Positions 1 through 41,707 of a stretch of 64,000 nucleotides of DNA are shown here, piece by piece. Origin of the DNA: Naegleria gruberi (taxonomy: Eukaryota). The translations under genes were made by a program, and so were the position numbers. Below the pieces are notes generated by a model. That model did no database searches. It was not told the origin of the DNA and saw only the letters and a program-made list of their open reading frames with translations. Position 1 is the first letter of the stretch. The number at the start of each line of letters is the position of its first letter. Location: the NCBI GenBank assembly GCA_000004985.1, contig GG738861.1; one strand, given 5' to 3'.

Positions 1-554
1 ACCCAAACCCAAACCCAAACCCAAACCCAAACCCAAACCCAAACCCAAACCCAAACCCAAACCCAAACCCAAACCCAAACCCAAACCCAACCACCCAAAC
101 CCAAACCCAAACCCAAACCCAAACCCAAACCCAAACCCAAACCCAAACCCAAACCCAAACCCAAACCCAAACCCAAACCCAAACCCAAACCCAAACCCAA
201 ACCCAAACCCAAACACAAACCCAAACCCAAACCCAAACCCAAACCCAAACCCAAACCCAAACCCAAACCCAAACCCAAACCCAAACCCAAACCCAAACCC
301 AAACCAAAACCCAAACCCAAACCCAAACCCAAACCCAAACCCAAACCCAAACCCAAACCCAAACCCAAACACAAACCCAAACCCAAACCCAAACCCAAAC
401 CCAAACCCAAACCCAAACCCAAACCCAAACCCAAACCCAAACCCAAACCCAAACCCAAACCCAAACCCAAACCCAAACCCAAACCCAAACCCAAACCCAA
501 ACCCAAACCCAAACCCAAACCCAAACCCAAACCCAAACCCAAACCCAAACCCAA
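1..554. repeat. Telomeric repeat array (CCCAAA)n, TTTGGG on the G-rich strand, about 92 units
   Basis: Strict 6-nt periodicity from base 1 to 554, with a few variant units (about 86-96 CCCAACCA, 214-219 CACAAA, 304-309 CCAAAA, 370-375 CACAAA). The C-rich strand reads 5'->3' inward from the window edge, as expected for a left chromosome end. Confidence 0.95.
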
Positions 555-1861
555 TGTAACTTTCCATGCTTCGCTGGCTGGTAGTAGTAATCTTTGAGAA
601 TGCATATTTGTTAACCCTAATATTACTTGATGCTGTTAAACTAAAATCATAATCGAATTGAATCTTGAAATTACCATTTGCCTTATCAGTCCAGAAACAT
701 TTTGGCTCAGTACCAAGCAATGCCAAGTCATCACCGTGAATCAACTTGGAGCATGGAACTGTATTTGCACTGTATGAAGGTGGAGCAAATAATTTGAGGG
801 TAACTCCATCAAATAGTTCATTAATTTGAGCATAAATTTCATTGACATAGCTTGAATTGAATGATCCAAAGTATGTTGCACAGTCACCTCCAAAGTAGCC
901 ATTCATACAATCATTACAAGAAGTTCCATTCCAGTGGCCATTATCTCTATCTTGATAGCAAGAGCATTTTCCAGTAGCGTCACAATTACCATTACCATTA
1001 CAAGTTGTTTGATCATTACAATACATATCACAATTTGACCCATAGTAATTAGTCTTACACTTTTCACAAATAAATCCATCAAAATTGCCTGTACAAACAC
1101 AAGTATTGTTGCTTCCACAAGATCCACCATTCAAACAAGTTGAGTCGGTACAATATCTCTCAGTACATGTTGTACCAGTGTAGGCAGGATGACATGTATT
1201 ACAATCAGATCCATAATAATGGCCATTTATGTGATCATTAACACATGAACAAGTATTGACATCTACACATTGACCATGTCCTGAACAAACATTGGAGCTA
1301 CTCTTTGAAATAGAATTACAATCAAATTGATCACACTTTTCACCATAGTATCCTGAATCACATGCGCATTTTCCAACACCACTTGTAGAATTGATAAAAC
1401 ATTTACCATGATTTGAACAAACTCTAAAATCAGTACTTGAGTAATAATCTTCAACGCCATTATAAATACCTATACAAAGTAAGTTTTCACAAGAATCACC
1501 TGTAATCTTGACTCCATAAATTGACAAGCAGGAACACTTATCAATATCTAAACAAGTACCTCTTCCTGAACAAACTTTTGCATCCATAGAAGAAATGCCA
1601 TAACAAGTTGTGTCTTGATAATCTTGACAATCTTTACCTCCATATCTCAACTGGCATATACACGTGTCAATATCAGTACAAACACCTCTTCCTGAACAAA
1701 CACTTGGATCGAGTGAAGTTTTACCAAAACAAGTTTTAACCTGACAATCTTTATCTCCATATCCATAAGAGCATTGACAATGACCATCTTCAAAACATTT
1801 GCCCTTTCCACTGCAAACAGTTGGATCATCTTGTCTCTTTCCATTACAACTTGTGATATTA
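555..1861 (-). pseudogene. Telomere-truncated paralogue of the giant EGF-repeat gene at 2770-10271 (internal fragment, about 435 open codons, no start and no stop)
   Basis: Hand translation of the minus strand is open across the whole segment (NITSCNGKRQDDPTVCSGKGKCFEDGHCQCSYGYG ... CNDCMNGYFGGDCATYFGSFNSSYVNEIYAQINELFDGVTLKLFAPPSY ... [34 protein letters not shown]). It is collinear with the part of the full gene encoded at about 5390-6481. The upstream end is lost in gap 1862-1911 and the downstream end abuts the telomere. Confidence 0.8.
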
Positions 1862-1911: not shown

Positions 1912-2512
1912 AATTAGAAAAAAATTAAACTTTAATGGTCCACTTATTATGAAAAATATGTTGGAAGGATCAAAAGAACTCTTTGTTTCTGCAAACAACA
2001 ATATTAATATTATTTCAAAATTTCAATCAATATTTATTTATTTAAATAGTGGAAATGAAAAATTAATGGATGATTTAGGAATAATTTTAAATTTAACAAA
2101 AGACAAAGTAAAACAAAAAGGTTATGTTGGATATCTTTATCATAACTATCCAATGTTATTATTTACTAAGAGAAATATTAATTATTCTTCATTTACAAAA
2201 GAAAATTTTAAAGATGTGAAATTATTTTGTGAAAATTATTTTAAATTTAAAATTGACGAATTCGATGGTATTAATGATTGGTGGAAAACTTTGACCACTC
2301 CTGCAGAATACGATGAAGACAAAGATTTAGACGAACACTGTTTTTGTGGAAACCAATTAAATCTATCCAATAGAAGGACTTGTTGTAATTGTCTTGATGG
2401 TATTTGTGAAGGTTGTGTAATTACAAGATTTAATAATTGTATTTATTGTGAGCCAGAGTGTTTGGAAAAGGATCACTTTAATACTCAAGTAGATGAAGAT
2501 GAAAATCAATAA
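1912..2512 (+). CDS. 3' part of a hypothetical protein with a Cys-rich C-terminus (5' end lost in the gap)
   Basis: Open frame from the gap edge to the stop at 2512. The C-terminus CFCGNQLNLSNRRTCCNCLDGICEGCVITRFNNCIYCEPEC looks like a zinc-binding cluster. I recognise no family. Confidence 0.45.
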
Positions 2513-2769
2513 ATGGTATTTCAAATAAAGATTGACCTTGAATTATTTGCAACATTTCAAAAGCAATTCTTTTTTAACAAGAAATTGATTGTCTAGACAC
2601 ACTGAATAACAATGAAACTGTGTGTGACTTGTTGTTTACCACCATCACATTAAATTATACAGAATATCAATCATTCATATATTAATTCAGAAGTACAATT
2701 GTTGTCCGAATATTGATTATTCCGAAAATTGCTGAATATTTGGCTAAATAATAACAATAAAGAATAACA

Positions 2770-5700
2770 TTATGATAGGTTGGCATAATAAATCACATTC
2801 GGCACTAGATTAAGCCAAAAAAAAAAACATCGGGAATATTCCTCAACAATCATAGAGTAAATTATTGCAACATATTCCGTGGTTTCCATTGTTATAAATG
2901 ATGGAATGCTGATATTAACAAGAATAGTTTTGCTTACACCTTCCATTTCTGTTGGAATGGATGAAATGACAAAGTCTGAGAGATCGGTGAAATAAATCTT
3001 GTCCACTTGGACAGATAAAGAAGAAGTTTGTAAAACAACCGGATCAGCACTCACAGTTTGTTCCTTAACAACTGAATAAGCAAGTTGTTCAGTCACATTA
3101 ACCAATTGATCGTAAATAATGAGTTGTTCAAGAGTTGATGTAATATTTTCAACAGTCTTTTGCAAATTCTCAACAATTGACAAGACAGTTTGACTTGTTT
3201 CAGTTGAAATTTGAAGATTACTCTTAAGTGCTTGGTCAATTACTTCATTCAAAATAGAAATTGACTTATCAATAACTACTGGAACAATAATTTCATCGCA
3301 CTTAATCACAGAATAAACAGCATAAACAACCATTGATAAAGTTGACTCAATTGAGGTTTCCACTCTTGTAGTTTCCACAGCACTTGTAAGTGTACTAAGA
3401 AGTTGAGTTTGAATTTTAGTAATTGTTTCAGAATCTTGATGTTGAACTTGTGGTAAACTTTGCAACAATTGACTTGTTGAAACGATTGTATTAACAGTTT
3501 GTGAAATACTTTCAATTGGATTACCATCTTGAATGATGGCTAAAATGATTTCGGTTGTTTGATTGGACACCCGTTGCCAAATCTCTTCGACTGTGTTTAC
3601 CACAACTGTTGTCACTGTAATATTTGTGAACATGATTCTTGATTCTCCAGATTGGGTATCAGTCAATTCAACGAACCATTTAACAGGTGCAGATTGTGGA
3701 GTATTTGAACAAGAGGATACCACAGCAGGGATTTTAACAGTATCCTCCTTTGAGACTGGTACTTGAATTTTGATTCCAGTGTCACTATCTACATATCCTT
3801 GGGTGATTTGGATAGTATTTCGTTCATTTTGACAATTTACACATAAAACTTTGAATTCTGTTTCCATGGAAACGCCATTAGAAGGTGTAATACTACATGG
3901 ACATTTTTGTGGTTGAGTTCCTTTTGTAATTGTTGTTGAAATTTCGGTAGAAGCAATTTCAATACCATTAACAATATTAGATTCATTTGTTTGAACATAC
4001 GAAACTTTCAATGCAATACTATTTTCAGTTCCTTCATCAAATTCCCTAGCATCAATAATAATAGCACTTTGTGTATTCTTACTCACAACTTGAACATAAC
4101 TTGAAGTTGATAACATTGTGGTTGTCAAAAAAGAATCTCTTGATTCTATTCTTATAGTTTTACTCTCAGAAACAATGGAGTTGTCAATCTTCCATTCAGT
4201 TTTAATAGAAAGTGATGAATCTGATAAATCCTGTTTTGAGTGAGAGACTTCAATGGAAAACTTCTCATCACTTTTGACAACAGATTTAAAGTCTGGAGAA
4301 ATGTCAATAATATTGAGAATCGGAGGAAAATGAACAAAATTCAAAGTAATAGAACATGAAACCTTTCTTTCTCCTTTTGTAATGCTTAGAGTAAAAGTTG
4401 GTTTCTGTAAAGTTGAAACGGAAAAGTCAGATTTGTCAACATTGAAGAGAGTTAAATGATTCTTGGAATGGAAAGACATTTTGTCAACAACACCATCTCC
4501 ACAATAACCACCAGTTTCAGAATTGACACACGACCATTGCCATAATTCAGATTCGTCTGTGTTGTTTTCTGGATCTTGATAATTGACTTGAATTGTTGAT
4601 GAATAATTACTCACTCTCTTCAATGAAAGATAAAGTGAAAGGTCAGGTTGTTCTGTGTAAATTATCACATAATCGCTCGATGATAAACTTGAATTTTGTG
4701 CAGCTGTAATTGAAATTTGGAAAACGAATTTCCACTTTCCCTTAATGAAACTGTCAATAATCAAATTATTGTAAGCGTCCCTCTTGAATGAAAGGGATGG
4801 ACCCTCAATTTGTTCCCATTCAATATTAATTGTTTCATTCTTCAAATGGTCTGGAATTGTAGTTGTCTTTTTGATATGAACCGACTTTTCAGTTGACTTT
4901 TGTCTAATAATCTTACTACCTGAAATTACCACTGAAGGAACTTGATATTCAATAATTTGGAATGTGAAAATATTAATCGAACTGAATTCATTTGTTACTG
5001 TACTTCTCACAACTAGTGTCAACTTGTAAACTCCCAGTTTTAGTAATCCCTTATCAATCTTAATGGTTGCTTGCTTGTTGGATTTTAAGAAATTTTCAAT
5101 AGTTGAATTGATAGAGTTTCCCTCAATCTTCCAAGTATACTCCAGTTCTTTCCTATCTCCAGAGAAAGAGTATGATCCACTAAATATTATATCTTCTGTT
5201 TCACTGTAAATTCTTTTTGATGACTTCACATCAGCAACTGGACTTTTGACAGTATTTGGAGGCATTAAATAAATAATAGTGTCATCTATGATGGTTCTTG
5301 TAGAAAAAGCTCCAAGTTTGTTCAATCTTCTTGTAAGTGTAGTAAATAGATTTCTGTTCACTCTAAACTGGTTTCCTATGACTGACGAAGAGTTTAGAGT
5401 AAAATCATAATCGAACTGAATCTTGAAATCACCGTTTGCCTTATTAATCCAGAAACATTTAAGTTCTGTGCCGAATAATGGTTGATCATCTATGTAAATA
5501 AGTTTTGAACATGGAACAGAGTTTGGTAAATAGGAAGGTGGAGCAAATAGCTTAAATATCACACCATCAAAGTAATCCGTAACCTGAGAATAAATTTCAT
5601 TGACATAGGTTGAGTTGAATGATTCAAAATAAGTAAAACAATCGCTTCCAAAGTAACCAGTCTGACACGAGTTGCATGAGCTACCATTCCAATAACCATT

Positions 5701-8700
5701 CTTGGAATCTGAAAAACAAATACATTGTCCATTGGATCCACATTGACCATGTCCATTACAAGTTGATTGACTATTACAATAGACATTACATTGTGATCCA
5801 TAACTATTGGATTTACAAGTTTCACAAATCAATCCAGTAAAGTTTCCAATACAATCACAGCTATTATCAGTTCCACAAGAGCCACCATTCAAGCAAGTTG
5901 AACCAGTACATGTTTTAACATTACAATTTGGACCAGCATATGCAGGATGACAAATGTTACAATCAGATCCAGAATAGAAACCATTAGCACTATCTCTAAA
6001 ACATGAGCAAGTGTTAATTCCAACACAGTTACCATGTCCTGAGCAAACATTTGAGTTATTCTTGGCAATAGAGTTGCAATTAAACATTTCACACTTATCT
6101 CCGTAATATCCCGCAACACAGGAACATCCTCTTGTTGAGCAGTTACCATGCTTTGAGCAAACTCTATAATCATTGCTTGAATAAAAATCTTCAACATTAT
6201 TGTATACTCCTTTGCAAAGTAAGTTTTCACATTCATCACCAGTAATCTTTATACTGACACCGTTTGATGAAAAACATTGACAGGTGTCAATATCAGTACA
6301 AACACCTCTTCCTGAACAAACACTTGGATCGAGTGAAGTTTTACCAAAACAAGTTTTAACCTGACAATCTTTATCTCCATATCCATAAGAGCATTGACAA
6401 TGACCATCTTCAAAACATTTGCCCTTTCCACTGCAAACAGTTGGATCATCTTGTCTCTTTCCATTACAACTTGTTATATTACATTTAGATCCAAAAAATC
6501 CAATTAAGCATTTACATAAATCATTTCCTATACATTCACCTTTTCCAGAACAAACAACTGTATCTTCAAGACTTGAAATGCCAAAGCATTCAAAAGTTTG
6601 GACTGTAACAGCCGCATTCAATGAACAGTCTGCTCCAAAGTATCCAGCTGTACAATTACACTTATTTAATGAAAGACAATCACCATGTCCACTACAGACC
6701 TGTGATGAATTATATTCAACTCCTGAACATGTGTGGAATTCACATTCCATTCCAAAATATCCGACATTACATGCACATTGATCCACTTGAGAGCAATTAC
6801 CACGGTTTAAACAAGCACCATTTAGACCTTTTCCAAAACAAATTGGTGATGAACAATCTACACCTGCCCAATTTTGATTGCACGTACAATTATTTGGAGA
6901 GTTACATTGACCATGTGAGGAACAAACCAGTGATGAGTTTGAAAGAATATTGAAACATTTTGGGAGAGCACACCAATCTCCTCCGTACATAGTGTTGCAT
7001 TGACAAATACCACCCACACAAGTGCCATTAGATGAACATACTGATGGGTCATCCTTTGAAATGCCATTACATTTGAGTAGTTGACATTGGTTTCCTTCGA
7101 AATTAGGAGAACAGGAACATGTATCAACACCAGAACATGTTCCATGTCCAGAACAAACTGATGTTTCGTTTGACAATTTTCCAAAGCAATATGGGTATTG
7201 ACATTGTGGACCTCCATAGTCTGAGTTACATTGACATGAATCCAATCCAACACATGAACCATGGGAATTGCAAATAGATGAGTCGTTTTGTAAAGTCCCA
7301 TAACATGTTGTAATTGAACAATTAGATCCATAATAATTTGAAGAACATGAACACGAATTATAATCCATACAAATACCATGCCCTGAACAAACACTGGAAT
7401 TGGTTTTTGCTACAAAGTAACAATCAAAATCTTCACAATTAGATCCATAATAATTTGAAAAACATGAACATGAATTAAATGTTGAACATGTACCATATCC
7501 TGAACAAACCTGACTTGAATTAGAAAAGACTCCATTACATGTTGTAATTGAACAATTAGATCCATAGTAATTTGAAGAACATGAACACGAATTATAATCC
7601 ATGCAAATACCATGTCCTGAACAAACACTGGAATTGGTTTTTGCTACAAAGTAACAATCAAAATATTCACAATTAGATCCATAATAATTTGAAAAACATG
7701 AACATGAATTAAATGTTGAACATGTACCATATCCTGAACAAACCTGACTTGAATTAGAAAAGATTCCATTACATGTTGTGACTGAGCAATTGGCACCATA
7801 ATAATTTGATGAGCAGCTACAGGAATTATATGCTGTACAAGTGCCTTGATTAGAACAACCAGTGGTAATAGAGTTTGAATATCCATTACATGTCCAAGAA
7901 GAACAATTTGAATTGAAATAACCAGTTGAACAGAGATTACAATAACCTCCAGCATAATTCACATCACATGCAAGGTAAATTTTTCTGAGTTCATCGATTT
8001 CTGCAATTACCATCAAATTGCTATCGCTGGCAAAAGCTAAGCCTACAAGTGTATTGAACTTGGTATTGGCCAGAGTTTCTCCATCATTAAATGTGCCAGC
8101 ACTATTGCCAGCATATGACGATATTGTGCCCGTGTTAGCATTGGCAGCAGAGGGTGTGAAAAGTTTAAGCGCACCACTGTCAGTGTAGTATACATTACCG
8201 TTGTCGTTTACAAAAAAGTCTTTGATTGATACAGAAGAGGTCTTAATTAAGTTAGTTTAAACATTTGACCCAAAACTTACAGTACAAATTGTTGTAACTG
8301 TTGAAGCTGTGAAAACTTTTAGATAAAAAGTTGAACCGATTTGTTGAAAGTAATATATCTTTCCGTCAGAAGGTCTTATATTAAAAGAAACTAAAAGAAT
8401 TAAAAGAAAATGTCCGATAACTTACATAGTGATGCAATATTTGCTGATGAAGATGCACCATCAGAAGTGGAAGCACCCCCTCCCAAAACAACTTCAATCT
8501 TGCCAGTTAAAGAGTTGATTTTGTAAATGTAACTGTCTAATGCAAAATAGACCTCACCATTGTAATATTTTACATATTTGACAGACTAGAATAAATTGGA
8601 TATTCATTTAATATTCATTCATTTCAATATTATAAAAATACTTACAATAATAGTACAAGCAGTTGGAGTGTTTCCATTAGCACATACTGGTCCAGCTGAT

Positions 8701-10807: not shown

Positions 10808-12016
10808 ATTGATAAGAGAAAGTTCTCCTATTCCGCAAGTTTATTTGGCCCCAAAGTAGATTTTCATCAAAATCTTCAAAATCGGCACATCTACTTGGTC
10901 ATCACAAAAACCATCTCCAATTAATTGGAGATTGTTCACTGATCAATAGTGTGTGGGGTTGAATTTTGGAAACTTTCTTCGGGTAATTCAGCAAGGCATC
11001 TTCATCATTACTTTCTTCAATAACTATATCATTGTGGAGGTTTCACACTGGCCAGGGCACTAGGAAGATTGTCATAATTATGTGGGGGTGGGTGGGTCGT
11101 GAAAAAAGGATGTCCATAATTACGTGGTCCAGAGTGGGTCAGAAAGTAGAGCAGAGCAAAAACAAAAATTGGCAAAAGTAGAGCCGAAGGTTTATTAGCC
11201 AAGAGTGAGACAGCGTTCAAAGTATCAATTATCACTTGTTCTGCTAGCAACAAGTACTTCTGGGTTCTTGATTGTTTGTGTACCAACAACTTTGGGCAGG
11301 CATTCATCTGGATTGTTATGGTTGAATGTGCTATGGCTGATGTGGAAGGAGGCAAAGGGAGAACTCTCCTCCTGGTACTGATGTTGGTAGTTAGCAGGGT
11401 GGTGATGAAATCATGGGTAATTGTTGTTTGTTGTTTTTTTTGTTGAATATTTAACGGTCAGAACATTCAACTTTCAGCGGTAACATGTGTGAAAAAGCTC
11501 ACATGCAGTGGCCAGGATTTGTTGGGACGATCTTACAGTGAGGTTGGGTGGGTCAAAAAGTGAGGGTCGTAATTATGACAATCTTCCCTAGACCAAGATA
11601 AGAATCAAAAAATATTCACCAAATGGTCCTCTATGGGCATGATGATTTTCGGAGTGGTTTTACATCATGAAACCACCAAACTTTCACATCATCATCTCAA
11701 CATGATCTATATAGTAGTAATAATAGTAATTTTTATTGGTGGATTATCATCATGAAATTGGAATTTATTTTTCATGATGGAAAATCACAATTTGGTGTTC
11801 CATCATCGGATCATTCACCAACCATCATTATTGTTTTCCATCAATATAATAATAGTATTTGTGGAAATTAATTTTTAGTAATGTAATTTTGGTGAAATGT
11901 AAAAATTTTCACTAAATTCATCATCACTGCTGGATCTACTGGACAAGTTGGAAAACTGTCAATGTAGTATTGTTCGGAATGGTCAATAGTAGGTAGGAGA
12001 ACTTTCTCTTATCAAT
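10808..12016. mobile_element. Candidate 1.2-kb composite element bounded by a perfect 23-bp inverted repeat
   Basis: ATTGATAAGAGAAAGTTCTCCTA at 10808-10830 is the exact reverse complement of 11994-12016. The interior carries the nested 525-bp TIR element and part of the dispersed repeat. No clear target-site duplication was seen. Confidence 0.35.
11063..11587. mobile_element. MITE-like non-autonomous TIR element (525 bp)
   Basis: Terminal inverted repeats GGAAGATTGTCATAATTAYG sit at 11063-11082 and, reverse-complemented, at 11568-11587. They are flanked by a direct CTA (11060-11062 and 11588-11590), consistent with a 3-bp target-site duplication. The sub-terminal GGTGGGTGGGTC motif occurs near both ends. 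The only internal ORF (108 aa) has no recognisable domain. Confidence 0.5.
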
Positions 12017-13197: not shown

Positions 13198-16100
13198 ATG
13201 GCAATAATACAAAGAAGGACTGCAACAATTGCATCCTTGTTGATTATTGTATTATGGTATTGCTTCTGTACTCAACACAGCATTGAGGCGAGTAACCCAA
13301 AAGTAGTGGGTGTCGTATCAACTATTGGAACTGATCAAGATAATGTGAAGACTTTGTATGACTTTGGACCCGATTGGAATGAAGGTACATACGCTTACTG
13401 GGGTGTTTTCAATGGTTTTCAATCAGGAACAATCTTCTTTAATGGTGACACCACCCCATTATTGGCTGGGTTGAATCCATCCAACTATATGTGTGTGGTA
13501 ATGTATTCGTCAAACAAACCCTCAAATGAAATTGTTCAAAAGGGTTGCCTCTATTCATCAAAGCAATTAGATATATTCTCAGCGACTGCATCAGCATACG
13601 GCTTTTATGTTACTGTTAGAAATTTAGGTTCGGTAGTGATGGCTGAGCAAGAATTTCCACCAGGAACATTCATTACAAGATTAAACCTAGAAGCAATAAC
13701 AGTTGAAAATGGGGCCAAAGTTGTTCATTCCAATGCAACCAATTACGTTGCATGGAGTGGTATGGCACGTTTAGATTTCAAGGAAGCTGATTTTTTGGTT
13801 GTGGTTGGTAATGCTCAATGCTCTCTCTCAAGTCAGGATACTGACAAATTAATCTTTGAAGATTCGTCCGAGTTGACTCTTCCACATACATGCGAAATGA
13901 CTTCTTTCGCTGCTCTATACACTGCAACTTATGATTCAATGACCTTGGGAAAAAAGCAAATGATAGAACAAATTAACCAAAGAAGTACATTCATAAAGAA
14001 GGTTATCAAGTCATCTACTACTTCCTTCTGGGTATATGGTAATTTTGTTGACTATACTTTATTTGATAATGAGAGACGCTATGGAAAACAAGCTCCTTTC
14101 TTTAGTTATTATGAAATTGACCCAAGCAATACCCAACCTTTCACACGGAAACACAGTACGTATATTTCTTCGTTTCAACCAACATACTCGGCTGAAGCAA
14201 ACGATATGAAAATAATTCCAGCTGACGGACAAATTGAAATATACATTGTTGGTTATGTGGAAATACCAAGCTCATTTTTATGTTGCTTCTTGAAGATTGG
14301 TACTGCCGAGCCATATCGAGCTAGAAAGCTAGAAATTGAAGGTGATGTAGTATTTACAGGAATAGATACCAACACAAATACTCAAGAAGTAATCGTTACG
14401 GGTCACTTTGCAGGTACAATTCAAATTGGTTCCACCAAATTGACAAGTAGTGGAGGACGAGATATTGTGGTTGCTGCTTTCAAAAGAGTTACTTTAGATG
14501 CTGTTTGGGCTATTAAAGAAGGAGGCTCAAACGATGATTATTCATATGGAATTAAGAATAATAATAATGAATTCATATCAATTTTTGGCAAACTTGGCTT
14601 GAATCCAAAATTTGATGGTAAGAATGTATCTGTTTCTGTGTCAACTGCATCAAACGGATTCATTGCGCATTTATCAGATCCTAATTATTGTTATGGAATT
14701 GCTAGTAATACTGAGACTGTTTGTAATGGTCATGGTCAATGTCAAAAAGATGGCAGTTGCCTTTGTAGTTCAGGTTTTGGAGATCAGTGTGAATTCCCAA
14801 CTTGTAACGAAATACACTTTAATGAAACAAATGTTTGTAATGGGCATGGTAACTGCACTGATTATGATACTTGTTCCTGTAATGATGGATGGACTGGTGC
14901 TAATTGTAATATACCTGTTTGTTTTGGTGTTAGTGAAGGTGAAAGTTGCAGTCAACATGGTTCCTGCATTTCAAATAATACTTGTCAATGTAATAATGGA
15001 TGGTTTGGAAGTAACTGCTCAATTCATTCATGTAATGGAACAAGTTCACAAGATGAGCAAAATATTTGTAATAATGGCAATGGTATATGTGTATCTGCAG
15101 ATATGTGTTCATGTAACCAAAATTGGACAGGTCAATTCTGTGAAATTCCTAAATGTTTTGGATTGAATTCAAGTGATATTTCAGTTTGTTCAAGTCATGG
15201 GCAATGTATTAATGCTAACACTTGTAGTTGTAATAAGGGATGGTTTGGAGCTGATTGTTCAATTCATTCATGTAATGGAACAAGTTCACAAGATGAGCAA
15301 ATCGTTTGTACTAATGGCAATGGTAAATGTGTATCTACAGATATGTGTTTATGCAATCAATATTGGACTGGACAATTCTGTGAAATTCCAAAGTGTTTTG
15401 GATTACCAGCAAACGATTCAAATGTATGTGCTGGTCATGGTAAATGTCTCTCCCCTGATGTTTGTTCTTGTAATCCTAAATGGTTTGGGGCTAAGTGTAA
15501 TTTCCCATCTTGTTTTGGAATTCCATTTTACAATTCTTCAGTTTGTTCCTCCCATGGCCAATGCATAACCTTGGACACATGCAAATGTCTAGATGGATAT
15601 GATGGAGAAACTTGTTCCTCTCATTCATGCTTTGGTTTTAAATCCAATAATGACTCGAGAGCTTGTACGAATGGTCAAGGAAAATGCACAGGTGCTAATC
15701 AATGTACTTGTTTGGAATCCGAAAGTGGAAGAGCAATAGGTCCACAATGTGAAACGATTTTATGTAAGGCAGGAGTTGATATGTGGTTACCACAAAAAGA
15801 TCCAAAAGTTTGTTCTCAACATGGTATATGTAAATTCAACATGTCAACTGTTGGATGTTTTTGTGAGGAAGGTTACGAAGGGCCAATATGTCAGTATCCA
15901 ATCTGCTATGGAATTTCATCGAATTCAAAGAAAGTTTGCAATGGAGTTGGTAAATGTAATGCTCCAAATAACTGTTCATGTTTTGATAATGATATTGATG
16001 GTCACTTTGTTGGAACAAATTGTGACAAGTGTAAAATTCCATACTCTGGAATTAATTGTACTGTTATTGAAAAGTGTAATGCTACATTGAAATGCAATTC

Positions 16101-19100
16101 ACATGGTACATGTGATGACTATGGTTTCTGTACTTGTTTCCAAGACGAAACTAACGGTTATTGGAATGGAACTAATTGTAATACTTGCAATGATGGATTT
16201 TATGGAGAAGATTGCATGACTCAATTGTCCAATGTACATTTCAATAATGAAGGAAATGGATTACTTTTCCAAATGACCTCTCCAAATCATTTCACATCCT
16301 TAAATGTTGATTGTAACAATTTATTAGATTCTTCAAGTATTTCCTCATTTGGTTCAAATGTAGTTTGTAGATATTCTAATAAGACATCCAATGATTTTAT
16401 TATTGAATTGGGAACTGATAATTCTATTCAAGTTGATCAAGAAATTTTATTGAATAGAAATGTGTTTAATAGAAACAAATTAGGAAATGATTATCAATCA
16501 TTCAAAATTGGAAATGCTGAAAATCCCATTCCACCAACAATTTTAATTTCTCAAAAAACAACATATTCAAGTTGTGAAAATATTCTATTGGATGCAAGTG
16601 AAAGTTATTCCACAGATGGAAAACAAATTTCCTATAAATGGGAAATTGTATCTTCCAACATGATGACACTTCCAAACAATAATTCAAGCAAACTGTCAAT
16701 CACCTATGACAGTATAAATGCTGGAAGTCATACTTTCAAACTGACAACTACAAGCCAAAGTTTGAAAACATCCTCATCCAAGCAAATCACATTCCAAAAG
16801 TTGAATTATGCAACACCTGTCATTTCTATTGAAGGAAGTGACAGCCTTTCACTTTCAACAAGCTCATTGCCTTTGATTGTAAGAAAATTAATCACCTTAC
16901 CTTCTTGTTTACCTTCAAAATCTGAAATTATTGTAAAATGGGAATATTTGAGTGGAACTGGAATGGAATATCAAGTTGACTCTACNNNNNNNNNNNNNNN
17001 NNNNNNNNNNNNNNNNNNNNNNNNNNNNNNNNNNNGATGGTTTGGAGCTGATTGTTCAATTCATTCATGTAATGGAACAAGCTCTCAAGATTTACAAAAT
17101 GTTTGTAATGGAGGAAGAGGTCAATGTATTGACACTGATATTTGCTCATGTAATGAAACATGGACAGGTCAATTCTGTGAAATTCCTAAATGTTTTGGAT
17201 GGAATTCAAGTGATAATTCAGTTTGTTCAACTCATGGTCAATGTATTAATGCTAACACTTGTCAGTTGTAATAAGGGATGGTTTGGTAGTAACTGCTCAA
17301 TTCATTCATGTAATGGAACTAGTTCACAAGATGTGCAAAACGTTTGTAATGGAGGAAATGGTCAGTGCATTGGAACAGATTTGTGTTTGTGTAACCAAAA
17401 TTGGGCTGGTCAGTTCTGTACTATTCCTAAATGTTATGGCGTTATTTCTACAGACGCTACAGTTTGCTCTACTCATGGTAACTGTACTGATATTAATACT
17501 TGCCAATGTAATACAGGTTGGTTTGGTCCATTATGTAGTATTCACTCCTGCAATGGAACTAGTTCACAAGATTTAAAACACGTCTGCAATGGTGGTAATG
17601 GAGTATGCATTCAAATGGATAAGTGTGATTGTAAATCTGGTTGGACAGGCCAGTTCTGTGAAATTCCGAAGTGTTTTGGTTTAGCTTCAACTGATAAAAA
17701 AGTGTGTGCTGGTCATGGAGGTTGCATGAGCTCTGATAAATGCTCTTGTAATAATGGATGGTTTGGAGCTGATTGTTCAATTCATTCATGTAATGGAACA
17801 AGCTCTCAAGATTTACAAAATGTTTGTAATGGAGGAAGAGGTCAATGTATTGACACTGATATTTGCTCATGTAATGAAACATGGACAGGTCAATTCTGTG
17901 AAATTCCTAAATGTTTTGGATGGAATTCAAGTGATATTTCAGTTTGTTCAACTCATGGTCAATGTATTAATGCTAACACTTGTAGTTGTAATAAGGGATG
18001 GTTTGGAGCTGATTGTTCAATTCATTCATGTAATGGAACAAGTTCACAAGATGAGCAAATCGTTTGTACTAATGGCAATGGTAAATGTGTATCTACAGAT
18101 ATGTGTTTATGCAATCAATATTGGACTGGACAATTCTGTGAAATTCCAAAGTGTTTTGGATTACCAGCAAACGATTCAAATGTATGTGCTGGTCATGGTA
18201 AATGTCTCTCCCCTGATGTTTGTTCTTGTAATCCTAAATGGTTTGGGGCTAAGTGTAATTTCCCATCTTGTTTTGGAATTCCATTTTACAATTCTTCAGT
18301 TTGTTCCTCCCATGGCCAATGCATAACCTTGGACACATGCAAATGTCTAGATGGATATGATGGAGAAACTTGTTCCTCTCATTCATGCTTTGGTTTTAAA
18401 TCCAATAATGACTCGAGAGCTTGTACGAATGGTCAAGGAAAATGCACAGGTGCTAATCAATGTACTTGTTTGGAATCCGAAAGTGGAAGAGCAATAGGTC
18501 CACAATGTGAAACGATTTTATGTAAGGCAGGAGTTGATATGTGGTTACCACAAAAAGATCCAAAAGTTTGTTCTCAACATGGTATATGTAAATTCAACAT
18601 GTCAACTGTTGGATGTTTTTGTGAGGNNNNNNNNNNNNNNNNNNNNNNNNNNNNNNNNNNNNNNNNNNNNNNNNNNCCAAATGACAGCTAGACCACTAGT
18701 TGTTAACTTGATCCAAATTGAATCAACAATTGACCAAGTAATAATTGAGATTGAAGAAATTGATTCTGATTTGCAAACTATTCCATTCGAAAGAGAATGG
18801 TCCACCAATAATTTGAATAACAATGACAACATATTACAATATCTATCATCTATCAAGAATAATACATTAACAATTACAAAATCATTAGTGAACGGTGCTT
18901 CTCAATTCGACATTTCATTAAGGTCAAGTAAGGTTTCCAGATATTCCACTTCAACTCTCTCCATTTTATTCCCAGAATCTCCTGAACAAATTCCACCTTC
19001 AATAACACCAGCTAACTCGCCTCCATCAAAATTGAATAAGGGAACTTTATTAAGCGTACAAAGTATTGTTTCGAGTGCAAGTAACAATATTATTAGAGAA

Positions 19101-20900
19101 TGGACAATGAATGGTCAATCTATTCCTTCAGAATTGACAAGAAATATGAGAATGCAACTTTCTGAGTCTGACGAATTAATTTTGGACACATCTTCTTTGA
19201 CAGAAGGTGCAACTTATCAAATTTCTTTCAAAGTTACTAATGTTGATTCTTTGTTATCTGCTTCATTGAATCATTCATTTGTAATCAACAAATCACCAAA
19301 ACCATGTGACTGTCAAGTGTCACCTTTGAGTGGTATTGCAATGACAACAATATTTACTTTCAATTGTCCAAAATGTCAAAACGATCAGAATAGTAATACT
19401 TTTGAATATGGTTTTATTGATGACTTTTCAAAATCCAACTTTCCACTTTCTAAAACAGAAGAATTATATCAAAAACTTCCAATGCCAAATTCTGGAAACA
19501 AATTAGATCTTTATGTCAAGGTAATTGATTCATTGACAGGATCTAGCTCCATAACAACCAAACAAGTTACCATTTCTCTTCCGGTTGTCAAAAGTTTAGC
19601 AGGAATCAAAAAGTTAACAGCCTCATGGAACCAAATAGCAACATTGGCTCCTGTTGGTGATTATCAACGAAGTGTTTTCAATACTGCAACCATTTCTAGA
19701 ACAATGAATTTATTATTTAAGAGTATAAGTTCAAAGAGAGATTTTTGTAATGGAAATGGACAATTTAAAGATGGGAAATGTGTTTGCAATTCTGGATTTA
19801 CAACAAGTAATTGTAAATGGTCCACTGAAGATTTTGAATTTATTCAATCTTTAATTAGAGATTTATTGAATGATTTTATGGGTTCAAGTCAAATCATGAC
19901 AACCGCTTCAGAATCAACAAATAGAAATTACATTACAAATTTATTATTTGGATTGAATTCAATTTCACAAAATTCTGAATATCTTTCTAACCAAATGGTC
20001 AACTCTAGTTTAATTTTATTGAGAGATGCTTTGGTATCAGTTCAATCAAGTACCACCTTTGTTCTGTCTAGAGGAGATTTGGTCAACTTGCAAAATATTT
20101 TGAACTTACAAGAAAATTTAATGGATGGTGAAAAATTATTGGAAACTGTTGAATTATTAGGGCAAGTTTTATTGAGAAATGTTTTAATTGGTCAAATACC
20201 ATTTAAATTTGAAACTAACAGTTATTTGACAGTTTTAAACAAACATTTCAAGAATCAAATGAATGGAATGAAATTCGAAAGTGAGATGGTGAATATCACG
20301 TTACCATGGAACATTTCATCTCTCTTGAAAACTAATTCAATCAAGTCACCAATCAAGTACAGATGGAATATTCAAAAAAATACAGACACCATTGCAATTG
20401 CAAATCAACCTGGAAAGATAATATCAATCAATTCAGTTGTGAATAGTTTACAACTTGATCCTTCACCTCAATCTTATTCGAAATACTTATTCGACATTGA
20501 GATGAAACAATACGACAGTCAGGCAGCTTATGTTTGTGCTAACATTGGATCAGCATCATTGGAAACTGATTGTTCCATTTCTATCAAGAATAACCAAATA
20601 GCAACTTGTGAATGCTCTTCATTAGGATATAATCTTGTAATTCTTGAATACAAATCCATTGAAAATCATGTATCAACCTCCTCTTCATCAAATTCAAATA
20701 TAATTGTCAAAAAACCTCCAACGAGCAATCCATTAATGTGGTTATTATTGTTACTAGTCCTCATTCCACTTACTGCCCTACTAATTGCAGTAATTGTATG
20801 GTTTGTAGTAAAGAAACTGGGTAAAGATAAGAATAATACAAGAAATCCATACATGCAAACACAAGAAAGCAGTTCTACAATTGAATTGAAGCATGTTTAA
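13198..20900 (+). CDS. Giant type I membrane protein: signal peptide, beta-propeller-like N-domain, EGF array, PKD/REJ-like region, GPS-like motif, single TM, short tail
   Basis: One reading frame from an ATG in an A-rich context (13198) to the stop at 20900. It is broken only by two 50-N gaps and one 1-nt frameshift at about 17263. N-terminus: IASLLIIVLWYCFC. About 80-aa EGF double modules: WFGxxCSIHSCNGTSSQD...WTGQFCEIPKCFG. REJ-like: ILLDASESYSTDGKQISYKWEI. GPS-like: TCECSSLGYNLVIL. TM: LMWLLLLLVLIPLTALLIAVIVWFVV. Confidence 0.85.
16986..17035. other. Assembly gap (50 N)
   Basis: Run of n. Confidence 1.
17036..18626 (+). repeat. Gap-bounded contig made only of EGF modules, duplicating earlier parts of the same gene
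   Basis: About 17990-18626 appears identical to about 15232-15868 (offset 2758). 17036-17270 is nearly identical to 17756-17990 (720-nt super-repeat). Confidence 0.8.
18627..18676. other. Assembly gap (50 N)
   Basis: Run of n. Confidence 1.
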
Positions 20901-21584: not shown

Positions 21585-22605
21585 NNNNNNNNNNNNNNNN
21601 NNNNNNNNNNNNNNNNNNNNNNNNNNNNNNNNNNNNNNNNNNNNNNNNNNNNNNNNNNNNNNNNNNNNNNNNNNNNNNNNNNNNNNNNNNNNNNNNNNNN
21701 NNNNNNNNNNNNNNNNNNNNNNNNNNNNNNNNNNNNNNNNNNNNNNNNNNNNNNNNNNNNNNNNNNNNNNNNNNNNNNNNNNNNNNNNNNNNNNNNNNNN
21801 NNNNNNNNNNNNNNNNNNNNNNNNNNNNNNNNNNNNNNNNNNNNNNNNNNNNNNNNNNNNNNNNNNNNNNNNNNNNNNNNNNNNNNNNNNNNNNNNNNNN
21901 NNNNNNNNNNNNNNNNNNNNNNNNNNNNNNNNNNNNNNNNNNNNNNNNNNNNNNNNNNNNNNNNNNNNNNNNNNNNNNNNNNNNNNNNNNNNNNNNNNNN
22001 NNNNNNNNNNNNNNNNNNNNNNNNNNNNNNNNNNNNNNNNNNNNNNNNNNNNNNNNNNNNNNNNNNNNNNNNNNNNNNNNNNNNNNNNNNNNNNNNNNNN
22101 NNNNNNNNNNNNNNNNNNNNNNNNNNNNNNNNNNNNNNNNNNNNNNNNNNNNNNNNNNNNNNNNNNNNNNNNNNNNNNNNNNNNNNNNNNNNNNNNNNNN
22201 NNNNNNNNNNNNNNNNNNNNNNNNNNNNNNNNNNNNNNNNNNNNNNNNNNNNNNNNNNNNNNNNNNNNNNNNNNNNNNNNNNNNNNNNNNNNNNNNNNNN
22301 NNNNNNNNNNNNNNNNNNNNNNNNNNNNNNNNNNNNNNNNNNNNNNNNNNNNNNNNNNNNNNNNNNNNNNNNNNNNNNNNNNNNNNNNNNNNNNNNNNNN
22401 NNNNNNNNNNNNNNNNNNNNNNNNNNNNNNNNNNNNNNNNNNNNNNNNNNNNNNNNNNNNNNNNNNNNNNNNNNNNNNNNNNNNNNNNNNNNNNNNNNNN
22501 NNNNNNNNNNNNNNNNNNNNNNNNNNNNNNNNNNNNNNNNNNNNNNNNNNNNNNNNNNNNNNNNNNNNNNNNNNNNNNNNNNNNNNNNNNNNNNNNNNNN
22601 NNNNN
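21585..22605. other. Assembly gap (1021 N)
   Basis: Run of n. The three long X-filled ORFs in the track are artefacts of this gap. Confidence 1.
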
Positions 22606-23571: not shown

Positions 23572-26500
23572 TTAAAGCATTAACAAGCACATCATGATTG
23601 AAACCAGTAAGGAAACACTGAACGAAATCATTGCAACGTTGTTGACACGAGCTGAAACCTTTGGAATAAAAGGAGCAGGAGAAGATTTTGGAGAGACAAC
23701 AGGTGTTGGAATAGCCTTTGGTTGAGCAGTTAACAAATATTTGCCAGTTGAAGAGACAGAAACAGTTACAGAGTTACTGGTCTTGGAAATGACTGAACAA
23801 CTGGTTGAGAGTTGATAATTATTGGTTGCTGAATTGTAAACTTGACAATAGACATCATATGCAGAAACCGATCTTGCCATTGTTATATCCTTTGAGGTAG
23901 AGAAGGTCAATTCGGCAATAGAACTTGAACTAGAAACGGTAACTGCAGATTTTTCAGCAAGAGAAATATCAAGAGCATCTGAAACAGAGTTGGTGACTCC
24001 GCCACTTGATGATTTTACCTTAAGAATGAGAGTCTTGTAATTAGAAACAAGATCAGAAAATTTAGCTGCCATTTTGAACTTATTTCCATTAATAATATCT
24101 TGTAAATTATTCAAAGTTGCAATATTGACCTTTCTTGAATAAGTAGTTGTTTGATTAGCAACAATATAGTTGGCTGGAAGGTCAGCAACTGTATCCTTAA
24201 CGAGAGCGCTTGATAAACTGTCATACGTAGCTTGAATATTAGTAATATCAGAATTGGAGAATGATCTCTTTGAAACACCCTTTGCTACAATAAATCTATA
24301 GAATTTATCAGCAGCTTCCTTCGCCTTTGTCAACAGTTCAGTAGCCAATTTAACTTCATCACTCGAAGCAGCATTAGCAGCAGTTTGAGCAAGATTGGTG
24401 ATCATCTTGGAAATAATGTCATCGACAATATATTCCAAACTTGAAGTACCAGAAGAAATCATTGACAATTTAGAGGAGGCAGAGTTAGTATTTTCAGAAG
24501 CAACAGATTGAGCCTTTGCTTGATTGTCCAAATAGGAAAGAATCATATTGGAAGTCAATTTTGCAATTTCAGCTTTTTGCTCAGCAGTTGCACCAGCAAT
24601 AGAGCTAACAACCTTAATGACAGCAGATACGGAAGCAAGGGTTGGTGTTTCCTTCGCAGTTGATTCAATAGAATTCACTGCTTGAGTGGTAGTTGGTTGA
24701 GTAACAGCTACAGAAATTTCAGATTCTGTAAATGCCAACTTGGAATCATAAACTGCAACTTTAAGACGGAGTTGAGAACTGCTTGAAGAAGGTAATTTGA
24801 TTCTTGTAGATCTAGTTTCAGTTCTCTCCGTCAATGCAGTCCAAGAGGATGAAATGTCATCATAATAGAAGAATTGATAGGTAAGTGGCAACTGAGAGTC
24901 TGTCCAACCATTTCCACATTTCAATTCGAATAAGGTACTGAGAGCAACACCAGATTGTGGACTAGCTTCGAAAATACCTCTTGTTGGAGGAGAGTTTACA
25001 TTAACACTTGTTGTAGCAACACCATTCTTTGAACCATCAGTAATATTCAAACTAATAGAGTATGAAGCGCCAGCACTCAACAATGATTTTGGAATCTTGA
25101 TAAAGCTGGAAGTTTGGGTGAGTGATGATAAATCAAACTTATCAGAGAACCAGAAGAAGGTTGGAGATGATAAAACTTCAAGAGAGGAATAGGTCAAATA
25201 CAAATCAGATGATGGGCTAACAAGTGAAAGATCGCTATTAGAAGTAATTGAAGCTCTAATCAAAGTATTCTTTGGAACGGACTTAGCTTTAACAATTAAA
25301 TTAGTTGATGCAGATCTTGATCCCTTAACAACAGTAGCAGTATACTTGTATTCACCAGCAGAGAGGAATGTGGAGAAGGTTCTTTGATTTAAATTTGGAG
25401 AAGAACATGACTTAATGTTGACAATATCAAAACATGTGATAGTGACAGTTTCTGAATCAGACGTACTACTTGGATCAACAACTGCAACAGAGAAATCCAA
25501 TGAATCTTGAGTTGATTGAGTAATGTCAGAAATGTTGAATTGAATAGTCAAATCTTGAGCTACAGCAGTTACCTTGAAAGGAAGAAATGCATCGTTAGCA
25601 TTGTCAGAAACAGCCCTAAGGATAAAGTAATAATCGCCTTCCTTATTAATATCAGTGAAGGATTTACCAATAGCGAATAAATTATTACTAGATTTTGGAG
25701 TTACAACTGATTTAGAGGCTGAAGAAGTATCAACAGAATAGGTATAATCAGTTTGATAATTTCCAGAATAACACTTTGGGAATTTGATGACTGGTGTCAA
25801 TACAATAGTAGATCCAATCATGTAAGTCACAGAAATACCTTCACTGAGTGATAGAGTTGGAACTGGATTGCTAACAACATTCACGGTAACACTTGATGTG
25901 GCAACTTTAGAGAATGCAGTTGTGACAGTAACTTGAATAATGAATGATCCACCAGAAATTGCACTCAATGAAGAGGAGCTGAAATCGACAATAGCGCTTG
26001 AAGTTTTAACACCACTCAAGTAAGTATTCAAAGCATTCATTTCACCAACAGTTGGACCGTTAGTGACATACCAAGAGAATAACAATGCACGACGATCTGA
26101 TGAAACTGATCCAGAAGCATCCAAATATAGAGTATCACACTTGGAAACAGAGCTCTTATCAGAAACTAGATTAACACTTGGAGGAAGTGCAACAAATGTA
26201 CCAGAAGAAACTGTAACAGACAATGTTTCAGCGCTTCCTGGGAATTTGAATAATCTCAAAGAATTACCTGGTACAATATTTGCACTGGTTCCTAATATAA
26301 TTTCCAAAGAGGAAGTTGCAGAATTCAAAATACATTTAGCATCAGAACCTATCAATGATAAATCAGAGCTAGAAATGACATCTGAACAATCTGATTGTTT
26401 CAATAAACTTGATTTGACTTCACCAATAATTGACCCACCAGTTGAAGTGAAAACAAAACTATTAGAATTAATTTGGAAATCACAATTGCTTCCAAACCAT

Positions 26501-28425: not shown

Positions 28426-28509
28426 GTTCCATTATAATAGCAATTATTTTCTTCAACGGTTGATCCACAGTTTAATTGGTTCAGTGGAACAGAGTATTCT
28501 GGTGTGCTT

Positions 28510-31428: not shown

Positions 31429-32144
31429 ATTTTTTTCAATTCGAATAGTTTTAGCATGGTAGCTAATAAGATTTTAATGGCAAGGGAATTGTTGTGTGAA
31501 ATGAGCCAACAAGTCACGTTACAATTTCATAGGATATTTGTTGAACAGTGCATTTGCCAAGTACCAACAAGATTAAATTGCTTAAATAAGCCAACAACAT
31601 GTCAACAATCCTCGTCACGGAATTTTCACAATTACGAATTCGTCTTGCATCATCATTCAAGTTGCAATTCCTCACTAAATCACGGGAAACACAGTTTCCT
31701 CTTCTTGCCATAAAGTGACCACATCTTTCACACCTTCTAACATTGGCATTTCCACTTCTGTCCTCACTAAACGAACAAAAGGAAGTTTCCAATGTTTGTG
31801 GATGTAAAATTTCGATGGAGCAAAATTAACTTCCTATTAAGAGTCGTTTTAAATCATGATGAACTTGTCTCATTTCATGTTCAGTATTCATTAGCAACAT
31901 TCAATTCCGAAACGTGATAAAAACTGTAAACTTTTCATCTACAGTTTCTTACTTACTTTCCGAGCCAAATTTTCTCATCAATTCTCCTGGTTAAAGAGGG
32001 GTGGCCGAAGAATTATTGAGGCAACACCATATTTCATCCAACAAACGACAACTACAGTACGGCTCAAACAACAATTATTGGCTGGAAAGAAAGCACCCCT
32101 CAAGATTTAAATGAATTTCAAAGCCGAAAAGATGAAAAAAAAAA

Positions 32145-32610
32145 TATTCAACAAATAATCCGTTGTGACTTGCTGATTTTCAGAGTGATTTCACATCATG
32201 AAAGCACCAAACTTTCACATCAGCATCTCAACATCATCCGAATAGTAATAACAATCATTGTTTTTTATTAGTGGATTATTATCAGCAAATAGGAATTTAT
32301 TTTTAAAGTTGGAAAAATACCAGTTGGTGAACCATCATATGAGCACTCACCAACCATCATCATTATTGTTTTCCATCAATATAATAATAGTATTTGTGGA
32401 AATTAATTTTTAGTAATGTAATTTTGGTTGAAGAGCCAAAATTTTCACTAAATCCATCATCACTGCTGAATCTACTGAACAAGTTGGAAAACTGTGAATG
32501 TAGTATTGTTCGGAATTGTCAATAGGAGGCAGGAGAACTTTCTCTGATTCTACTACTATTTAAAATAGATAATAAACATCATATTTATTATCAGATTTTC
32601 ATCATGTTCT
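32145..32610 (+). repeat. Dispersed intergenic repeat, copy B
   Basis: See copy A (11620-12180). Same orientation, roughly 85-90 percent identity by eye. Confidence 0.7.
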
Positions 32611-32751
32611 ATTGCCCTATCATCATTGCAATAATATAATTAATGAAAGACTTCCAATACGGCCCAAACCATTTGCACCACCCAAACAATCAAGTTTGCG
32701 ATTGAAAGATTTTCAAGTTTGCGATTGACTCTTCAACACATAAAGTAAAGT

Positions 32752-40166: not shown

Positions 40167-41707
40167 AACTTGATGAATTTTTTCCATGTTGAAAATTACA
40201 GTAAGTTGTTAATTGCAATGTTTGCTGATTGTTTGCTCGTAATGTTTGATGATGTGTTGAATGAAAATAATGAAAAGTCATATTGTAAAGTTGTTCTTCT
40301 TCACTTGACTTTCCACATTTAAAAAATGACCTCTAAAATAGTTTTTTAAACTTCAATTTGACTTGCCATCAATCACATCAATCATTCTATCATTAATTTT
40401 TCATTTAAATATTTTTTTAACACACAAATCATCAATTAAAAATCAAAAAAAAACAAATCCATTCAAATTCTATAAAAATGTCATTCTGTGAAGACGTTCA
40501 AGCCCTCGTTGTCGATAACGGTTCTGGTATGTGTAAAGCTGGTTTTGCTGGTGATGATGCTCCAAGAGCTGTCTTCCCTTCAATTATTGGTAGACCAAAG
40601 CAAAAGTCCATTATGGTTGGTATGGGTAATAAGGATGCCTATGTTGGTGATGAAGCTCAATCCAAGAGAGGTATTTTAACTTTGAAGTATCCAATTGAAC
40701 ACGGTATTGTTACCAATTGGGATGATATGGAAAAGATCTGGCATCACACTTTCTACAATGAATTGAGAGTTGCTCCAGAAGAACATCCAGTCTTGTTGAC
40801 TGAAGCTCCTTTGAATCCAAAGGCCAATAGAGAAAAGATGACTCAAATTATGTTTGAAACTTTCTCAGTTCCAGCTATGTACGTCGCTATTCAAGCTGTC
40901 TTGTCCTTGTATGCTTCTGGTAGAACTACTGGTATTGTTTTGGACTCTGGTGATGGTGTTTCCCACACTGTTCCTATCTATGAAGGTTATGCTTTGCCAC
41001 ACGCCATCTTGAGATTGGATTTGGCTGGTCGTGATTTGACTGATTATTTGATGAAGATTTTGATGGAAAGAGGTTATTCATTCAATACTACTGCTGAAAG
41101 AGAAATTGTCAGAGATATTAAGGAAAAGCTCTGTTATATTGCTTTGGATTTCGAAGCTGAAATGAAGGTTGCTGCTGAATCATCATCAGTTGAAAAGTCA
41201 TACGAATTGCCAGATGGTAATGTTATCACTGTTGGTAACGAAAGATTCAGATGTCCAGAAGTCTTGTTCCAACCAAACTTCATTGGTATGGAAGCTGCTG
41301 GTGTTCATGAAACTACTTTCAACTCCATTGGTAAATGTGATATTGACATCAGAAAGGACTTGTACGGTAACGTTGTCTTGTCTGGTGGTACTACTATGTT
41401 CGAAGGTATTGCTGAAAGAATGACCAAGGAATTGACTGCTATGGCTCCTGCTTCAATGAAGATTAAGGTTGTTGCTCCACCTGAAAGAAAGTACTCTGTC
41501 TGGATTGGTGGTTCCATCTTGGCTTCATTGTCCACTTTCCAACAAATGTGGATCACAAAGGAAGAATATGAGGATGCCGGTCCAGGTATTGTTCACAGAA
41601 AGTGTTTCTAAATCTATTGATTTTGAAACAATTCAATTCTCCCAAACAAACAACAAAAACTTGTTTGTAATAAAACTATTATGTAAAATTAAAATCAATC
41701 TGAATAC
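40167..41707. repeat. Right arm of the actin inverted duplication
   Basis: See the left arm (32752-34310). Confidence 0.9.
40478..41611 (+). CDS. Actin (conventional, 377 aa), intronless; protein identical to the 32846-33979 copy
   Basis: The ORF translation is identical residue for residue to the other copy. The nucleotide differences I counted are all third-position and synonymous. Confidence 0.97.

Follow-up and report, generated by a model that had tools for sequence, protein, structure and literature searches.

Probable recent exchange between EGF modules of two diverged paralogues beside a telomere-truncated gene in Naegleria gruberi

Introduction

Interlocus, or ectopic, gene conversion is known between tandem paralogues, the human gamma-globin genes being an example. 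Unequal crossover is known to give rise to fusion genes of the Hb Lepore type, and tandem-repeat proteins are known to change in module number. In subtelomeric families, including the var genes of Plasmodium, the VSG genes of Trypanosoma and the subtelomeres of yeast, ectopic recombination, break-induced replication and telomere healing all occur. Draft genomes assembled from Sanger reads, which are about 700 bp long, bring their own complications, as contigs break at repeats and redundant, haplotig-like contigs are retained.

Here we describe a locus from the heterolobosean amoeba Naegleria gruberi in which an ordinary kind of event is found in a new place, entangled with a limitation of the draft assembly. 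The window, by which we mean the whole stretch of 64,000 nucleotides that was analyzed, is the telomeric end of a 507,294-bp scaffold record of N. gruberi NEG-M. The Sanger-sequenced assembly is the NEG-M reference, and Naegleria is described as predominantly heterozygous and diploid (PMC9928731); a nanopore-based long-read assembly of N. gruberi has been published (PMC12695648). Translated open reading frames of the window match NEG-M proteins exactly (actin EFC45736 plus three identical entries; EFC45734/5; EFC45850/1/3). A reassigned, ciliate genetic code, which the CCCAAA telomere repeat had prompted us to consider, is out, because the standard code yields an open frame of 1828 codons and the exact N. 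gruberi proteins. The elements at the center of this study are the following.

1-554, minus strand: telomere array, about 92 units of CCCAAA on the plus strand, the G-strand TTTGGG running toward the end
555-1659, minus strand: diverged part of copy 1 (the X tail), with 71-72% nucleotide identity to 5394-6279
1534-1659, minus strand: 42 codons found in copy 1 only (126 bp, one EGF module), from protein and nucleotide alignment and the module map
1660-1861, minus strand: the tract in copy 1, made up of module X3 (1860-1744) and the first 28 codons of X2, identical to copy 2 at 200/202 positions
1862-1911, no strand: scaffold gap of 50 N directly to the right of the tract, a placeholder
6280-6481, minus strand: the tract in copy 2, made up of module Y13 (6480-6364) and, from the terminal module Y14, the first 28 codons

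Each of the systems named above resembles this locus in part. As in conversion of the gamma-globin type, old duplicates with saturated silent sites share a near-identical block, silent sites included, that has an abrupt edge at a structural discontinuity; unlike in that system, there is one edge, a one-module shift, a background of 72% identity, and an adjacency that depends on an unreliable scaffold join. As in Hb Lepore, homologous units meet at a single in-frame junction that fuses one gene's 5' part with a diverged paralogue's 3' part and alters repeat number, but such an event would delete 1912-6279, and since the assembly has that interval, a Lepore-type model fits only if the assembly mixes two haplotypes. 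The likeness to var, VSG and yeast subtelomeres lies in surface-protein paralogues next to a telomere, the terminal member being a mosaic truncated by telomere addition; the locus differs from var and VSG in coming from a free-living amoeba, in having only four members in the 31 kb, and in giving no sign here of programmed switching, expression sites or a large archive. Repeat breaks of Sanger drafts are matched by a tract that lies at a contig end, is shorter than a read, borders a placeholder gap, and has a second case in the scaffold. Such breaks explain where the tract stops, but not how sequence diverged by 28% came to be joined in module phase. Finally, copy 2 passes the curated Pfam thresholds for domains of teneurin-type EGF and REJ-domain receptors (PF25024, PF23106, PF07974, PF02010), a likeness at the domain level only, the nearest retrievable relatives (Naegleria, Acrasis and metagenomes) being 32-46% identical.

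Results

A telomere-proximal cluster of EGF-REJ genes

The first 31 kb from the telomere (555-31473) form a cluster of four EGF-REJ surface-protein genes. Apart from copy 1, its main elements are these.

2773-8256, minus strand: main exon of copy 2, 1828 codons, from the open frame, Pfam and the module map
7902-6214, minus strand: 14 teneurin-type EGF modules of copy 2, about 39 residues each, from the module map
7298-7765, minus strand: recent two-module tandem duplication in copy 2 (Y02-Y03 versus Y04-Y05, unit of 234 bp), 7298-7531 against 7532-7765, 97% identical
13801-16983 and 18678-20897, plus strand: paralogue 3, EGF-REJ family, Pfam matches above thresholds
23575-31473, minus strand: paralogue 4, EGF-REJ family, Pfam matches above thresholds

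The 14 EGF modules of copy 2 are followed by further EGF-like modules and then by a REJ domain, with Pfam scores of 203 bits for EGF_TEN (cut-off 65) and 70.9 bits for REJ (cut-off 25). Upstream exons carry NHL-like repeats, and a probable start codon at 10271 opens a signal-peptide-like sequence. The identity of the two-module duplication, 97% over the 234-bp unit, is 93% over a 306-bp megablast alignment. As this duplication sits inside one contig, module-register exchange does occur in copy 2. The 5' exon of paralogue 4 (28222-31269) holds about 20 tandem EGF units of 138-144 bp with mutual identities of 60-88%, a long array that is prone to unequal exchange.

Protein searches retrieved none of the four EGF-REJ genes from the reference proteome or from other sources, and the family appears to be unannotated in NEG-M. 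The best protein matches to copy 1, from N. gruberi (EFC45148), Acrasis kona and metagenomes, reach 32-46% identity, and homologue searches with the copy-1 fragment, the REJ tail of copy 2 and the open reading frame to the right of the gap returned nothing above 46%, or nothing. A metagenome, ERR1078381 (assembly ERZ929261), contains an N. gruberi-like strain that is 98.7% identical over 6 kb of the window (L002, equivalent to 45394-51424). From it comes a paralogue of a third type (P0035/L004), with 55% amino acid identity to the X tail, which acts as an outgroup and does not cover the junction described below. In P0035 the NHL-like repeats are followed at once by the terminal EGF module, without a long EGF array, and EGF module number across the family ranges from 1 to at least 14. 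The closest retrievable relative of the X tail is copy 2 (72% nucleotide identity, versus 66% for L004), as expected of neighboring duplicates. Our literature searches found nothing on the EGF-REJ family or on gene conversion in Naegleria.

Three other features of the window were recorded. Two actin genes (32747-34213 and 40245-41710), inverted and 6 kb apart, encode the same 377-residue protein, which equals four N. gruberi entries. They differ at 28 positions in 1467 bp, with 26 of the mismatches in the coding sequence. Beyond it their similarity runs on for about 100 bp on the 3' side and about 230 bp on the 5' side before falling to random, which points to concerted evolution or a recent duplication. 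Two direct copies of a repeat, about 400 bp long and 86% identical, lie upstream of copy 2 (11607-12009) and beside the first actin gene (32139-32545). This repeat has no open reading frame and no Rfam match, and is possibly a dispersed one. A plus-strand open reading frame at 1913-2509, open from the gap edge, with its first ATG at 1949 and a cysteine-rich C-terminus, converges on the 3' end of copy 2. It has no Pfam match, and a search of 5.8 billion proteins gave no homologue; either this is an orphan gene or there is no gene here.

A near-identical tract between saturated paralogues

A preliminary description of this DNA held that 1664-1861 equals 6284-6481 except for one base (1855 G versus 6475 T), and direct comparison of these 198 bp finds that single mismatch. 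The near-identity itself reaches slightly further left than those limits: 1660-1861 and 6280-6481 are identical at 200/202 positions, the mismatches being at 1663/6283 and 1855/6475, with an exact run of 191 bp between them (1664-1854). Both mismatches are synonymous in the minus-strand reading frame, and that at 1855 lies 7 bases from the contig end. No third copy of the tract was found in the window.

Left of the tract the two copies had been described as strongly diverged, with an abrupt switch in identity, and both statements hold. Flank identity is 0.721 (638/885 sites), the longest exact run there is 19 bp, and the gapped alignments of 628-1369 with 5386-6127 and of 1398-1509 with 6138-6249 give 72% and 80%, respectively; at the tract, identity switches to about 99-100%, silent sites included. 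Nei-Gojobori counts over 295 aligned flank codons and 67 tract codons gave a flank dS of 1.35 and dN of 0.22 (dN/dS about 0.17) and a tract dS of 0.05 and dN of 0, and four-fold sites are identical at 24/25 positions in the tract against 40/66 in the flank. The copies are thus diverged paralogues, between which the tract is more similar than the surrounding paralogous sequence at silent sites as well, as is seen in interlocus conversion. The binomial probability of at least 200 matches in 202 at the flank identity is 6e-26, and since silent sites are also identical, chance and protein-level selection are excluded as sources of the tract.

An in-frame junction on a one-module shift

The switch in identity is a single in-frame junction at 1660/6280, at a conserved cysteine codon of an EGF module. 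Read in the gene sense, the tract comprises X3 (equal to Y13) and then the first 28 codons of X2 (equal to those of Y14), ending at the motif CTDIDTC. After this motif copy 1 continues with ICQLRYGGKDC-QDYQDTTCYGISSMDAKVCSGRGTCLDIDKC-SCLSIYGVKITGDSCENLLC, and copy 2 with QCFSSNGVSIKITGDECENLLC. The extra EGF module that had been ascribed to the truncated copy was recovered as a 42-codon in-frame difference, about 126 bp present in copy 1 only, and in the collinear alignment with copy 2 its placement is ambiguous inside the repeated module motif. The identity switch falls, to the codon, on this one-module shift. Register is consequently not kept across the boundary, as it is at the end of a simple conversion tract, and to the left of 1660 at the tract offset there are 3-8 matches per 20 bases, the random level. 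The edge previously read as the signature of a conversion patch is therefore abrupt as claimed, but it is a structural junction on a 126-bp shift and not an in-register fade. Only the boundary on the 3' side, in the gene sense, is visible; on the other side the contig stops at 1861 and cuts the tract off.

X2 is a hybrid that unites the N-terminal part of Y14 with a C-terminal part of its own, and it forms a canonical 39-residue EGF module. The collinear low-identity alignment passes through X1/Y14 to 1646/6383 at 71%. At the same time the N-terminal part of X1 resembles that of Y14 (73%) and the C-terminal part of X2 that of Y13 (75%), as in a shifted exchange, a level to be read against the 57-76% seen between unrelated modules. 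From these alignments, two histories would fit the junction: an in-register exchange together with the loss of one module from copy 2, or a single exchange with a one-module shift, in which X1 would be the counterpart of Y14 and X2 that of Y13. Frame and exact module phase are both kept, which indicates that the junction was made by homology rather than as a random cloning chimera, as random ligation would be expected to preserve both in roughly 1-3% of cases. Without shared sequence to the left of 1660 in that register, moreover, no false overlap is possible. The recruitment of reads from 6284-6481 to the end of the small contig, which the preliminary description had named as a possible refutation, fails on these same grounds to explain an in-frame junction in module phase.

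Truncation of copy 1 by the telomere

Nearly all units of the telomere array are CCCAAA; the four variants comprise one CC insertion, two ACACAA and one ACCAAA. TTTGGG has been reported as the candidate N. gruberi telomere repeat (PMC3622300). The junction of the array with unique sequence, ...CCCAA/TGTAAC..., falls within the coding frame of copy 1.

Correctly oriented telomere repeats adjoin the interrupted coding sequence of copy 1 directly, and copy 2 goes on for about 870 codons more. Copy 1 is a gene that was cut at its 3' end, the chromosome end being healed by telomere addition. Of the EGF modules the X tail has X1 and the C-terminal third of X2; more EGF-like modules follow, and it extends into the beginning of the pre-REJ region. 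The copy-1 fragment has Pfam matches to EGF_2, EGF_TEN and EGF_Teneurin, of which EGF_2 and EGF_Teneurin alone exceed curated thresholds, and the REJ part is lost. On the minus strand its frame is open from 556 to 1860, with 0 stops and no frameshift in 435 codons. Together with the flank dN/dS, this absence of stop codons indicates that copy 1 was a working gene until recently, and purifying selection in the flank combined with 435 open codons argues that truncation and exchange are both recent. Both could stem from a single episode of subtelomeric breakage and repair. Self-comparison found no diverged 5' part of copy 1 assembled within the window, which fits a collapse of that part onto copy 2 and identity that continues past 1861.

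Contig ends and a misplaced contig

The gaps of the window, and a second identical stretch beside one of them, are as follows.

1862-1911, 16986-17035 and 18627-18676: runs of 50 N each
21585-22605: run of 1021 N, the fourth in the window
17960-18626, plus strand: 667-bp stretch that matches 15202-15868 at 100% and closes a small contig on its right, next to a 50-N gap

The copy-1 tract lies in the first contig (1-1861), which is small and telomere-adjacent, and it ends exactly at the contig end, 1861; at 202 bp it is below read length, as is typical of a repeat-induced contig break. Self-comparison of the whole window found just two repeats of at least 99% identity, this one and the 667-bp stretch (667/667), each of which stops where a small contig ends on its right, at a 50-N gap. 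Repeats resolved within contigs, namely the actin inverted repeat and the two-module duplication of copy 2, are at most 98% identical. When 400 bp on either side of each gap were compared with the rest of the window, the only contig end with a high-identity copy besides the copy-1 tract was that of contig 17036-18626, a recurrence again expected of repeat-induced breaks. With a repeat fraction of about 2.8%, we estimate a P of about 0.02 for two of eight contig ends. Because both of the repeats of at least 99% end at 50-N gaps, the gap at 1862 was probably caused by repeat identity. That the tract ends at 1861 is the work of the assembler and not of biology, and the near-identity probably continues beyond it. 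The far boundary was earlier said to be hidden by the gap; the tract is cut there, and the gap is itself the probable product of the identity.

Contig 17036-18626 provides an internal control. It encodes EGF-array units with a frameshift near 17265, and to the left of its 667 identical bp come about 190 bp at 82%, beyond which nothing aligns in register. Positions 16983 and 18678, on its two sides, follow one upon the other in the PKD/REJ region of paralogue 3. Judged by collinearity with copy 2, no more than about 40 residues can lie between them, and Pfam places REJ profile positions 137-445 directly after the second of the flanking gaps, so the contig is misplaced or redundant. As a misplaced contig has two of the 50-N gaps as its flanks, we infer that gaps of this kind are placeholders, and it follows that the position of the first contig beside 1912 is not secure. 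The local scaffold order is not trustworthy. Contig 17036-18626 is either the 240-bp repeat array at 14989-15528 in an expanded or allelic form, or an array that has been collapsed.

Discussion

The locus is best explained by a recent homologous exchange between EGF modules of two members of the family, which we regard, taking all its forms together, as quite probable. The preliminary description was right to suggest a recent transfer, which, apart from shared DNA, is the only source of such a pattern, and went too far in calling it a patch, as one boundary is visible. With one boundary, a conversion tract, which has two, is not separable from a single crossover-type junction. A boundary that falls on a structural shift, as this one does, is more usual for template switching or unequal crossover than for the end of a simple conversion tract, and a 72% background with identical runs of at most 19 bp suits classical conversion poorly. 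Between tandem neighbors, a bounded conversion patch is one form that the exchange may have taken.

Among these forms, we tentatively favor one with two physical loci, in which non-reciprocal copying placed the 5' sequence of copy 2 onto the telomere-proximal paralogue, or the reverse, over a tract longer than 202 bp; two loci, the length and direction of the transfer and the repair mechanism are what we infer. Copy 1 would be an old paralogue of copy 2, given the saturated silent sites, that lost its 3' end in a chromosome break healed by telomere addition. Its sequence upstream of the junction at 1660/6280 would have been replaced by copy-2 sequence through gene conversion in the broad sense, that is, double-strand-break repair with the paralogue as template, and one end of the copying would have stopped at, or created, a one-module heterology. 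The Sanger assembler would then have failed at a repeat of at least 99% identity, breaking the contig and collapsing the rest of the 5' part of copy 1 onto copy 2. Further points count against this reading. The scaffold misplaced another small contig between gaps of the same 50-N kind, which leaves the adjacency of the first contig to 1912 insecure; the gap-edge scan found no repeat stub at the left end of the next contig (1912-2311); and sequence searches retrieved no independent assembly, transcript or related-strain locus over the region.

A serious competitor, if to our minds a somewhat doubtful one, is a single locus with two alternative distal ends, such that the first contig truly joins copy 2 at 6280. 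One homologue, or part of the culture, would then read telomere, X tail, junction and 5' half of copy 2. Such an end would come from a Lepore-type unequal crossover involving a paralogue, or from break-induced replication that ran onto another chromosome end. In that case the 202 bp would be the same or allelic DNA assembled twice, and the first contig a redundant or alternative-haplotype one. Such a structure has the appeal that one event with a single junction accounts for both the identity switch and the module shift, and that a separate 5' part of copy 1, absent from the window, is not called for. Contig 17036-18626 shows the same topology (a divergent side, 667 bp at 100%, a 50-N gap) and is provably misplaced. 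That three of the four gaps are exactly 50 N, and one is 1021 N, suggests that 50 is a floor value for gaps that are unsizable or negative. One mismatch in 202 bp would be compatible with allelic variation or a read-end error, and the mainly heterozygous diploid state described for Naegleria (PMC9928731) would fit. Against this, the source of the X tail must be sought elsewhere, in a 28% diverged paralogue, and homologue searches found none; one homologous chromosome would have to be short of at least 4.4 kb of distal sequence; the telomere of the long version is unaccounted for; and the arrangement is contradicted by the scaffold as given.

It is improbable, in our judgment, that the tract is an assembly or cloning artefact, whether a chimeric clone or read or a contig-end consensus built from copy-2 reads. 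The location invites suspicion: the tract stands at the very end of a small, telomere-adjacent and probably low-coverage contig, the mismatch at 1855 is just 7 bases from that end, and another small contig of the scaffold is misplaced and carries a frameshift (17036-18626). A random chimera would nonetheless be unlikely to join its parts in frame and in exact EGF-module phase so as to yield a canonical 39-residue module, and the random level of matching left of 1660 leaves nothing for a false overlap to act upon. The first contig, for its part, has no frameshift over 435 codons. PCR template switching does not occur in Sanger shotgun libraries, and so would not be involved in this Sanger-sequenced assembly. 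That there was no exchange at all, the tract being a more conserved part of the gene through strong constraint or chance, has in its favor that it encodes well-formed EGF modules and that EGF cysteines are conserved, but this is already refuted by the silent-site counts and the binomial probability given above, elsewhere the EGF modules of the two copies reach just 57-80% identity, and neither an Rfam family, none of which matched in the window, nor an open frame on the plus strand under the tract is there to impose constraint at the nucleotide level, so we give it practically no credence.

Our analysis carries a practical warning for users of this reference scaffold. Small contigs between 50-N gaps are only roughly positioned, and near-identical stretches at the ends of such contigs should not be taken as sized conversion tracts.

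More broadly, the ends of N. gruberi chromosomes might be actively reshuffled clusters of EGF-REJ genes that serve, largely unannotated, as a diversity-generating archive like those of parasitic protists. We think this unlikely as a general account. Were it so, ectopic recombination in module register, expansion and contraction of arrays, and breakage with telomere healing would all be at work, and one process would have left three footprints: the 1660 junction, the 667-bp stretch at 17960-18626 and, within copy 2, the two-module duplication at 97%. If the exchange described here is real, it offers a clean natural case of EGF-module exchange between diverged paralogues, beside a telomere-healed gene at a Naegleria chromosome end, and hints at recombination-active subtelomeres that house an unannotated family of surface proteins in a free-living heterolobosean.
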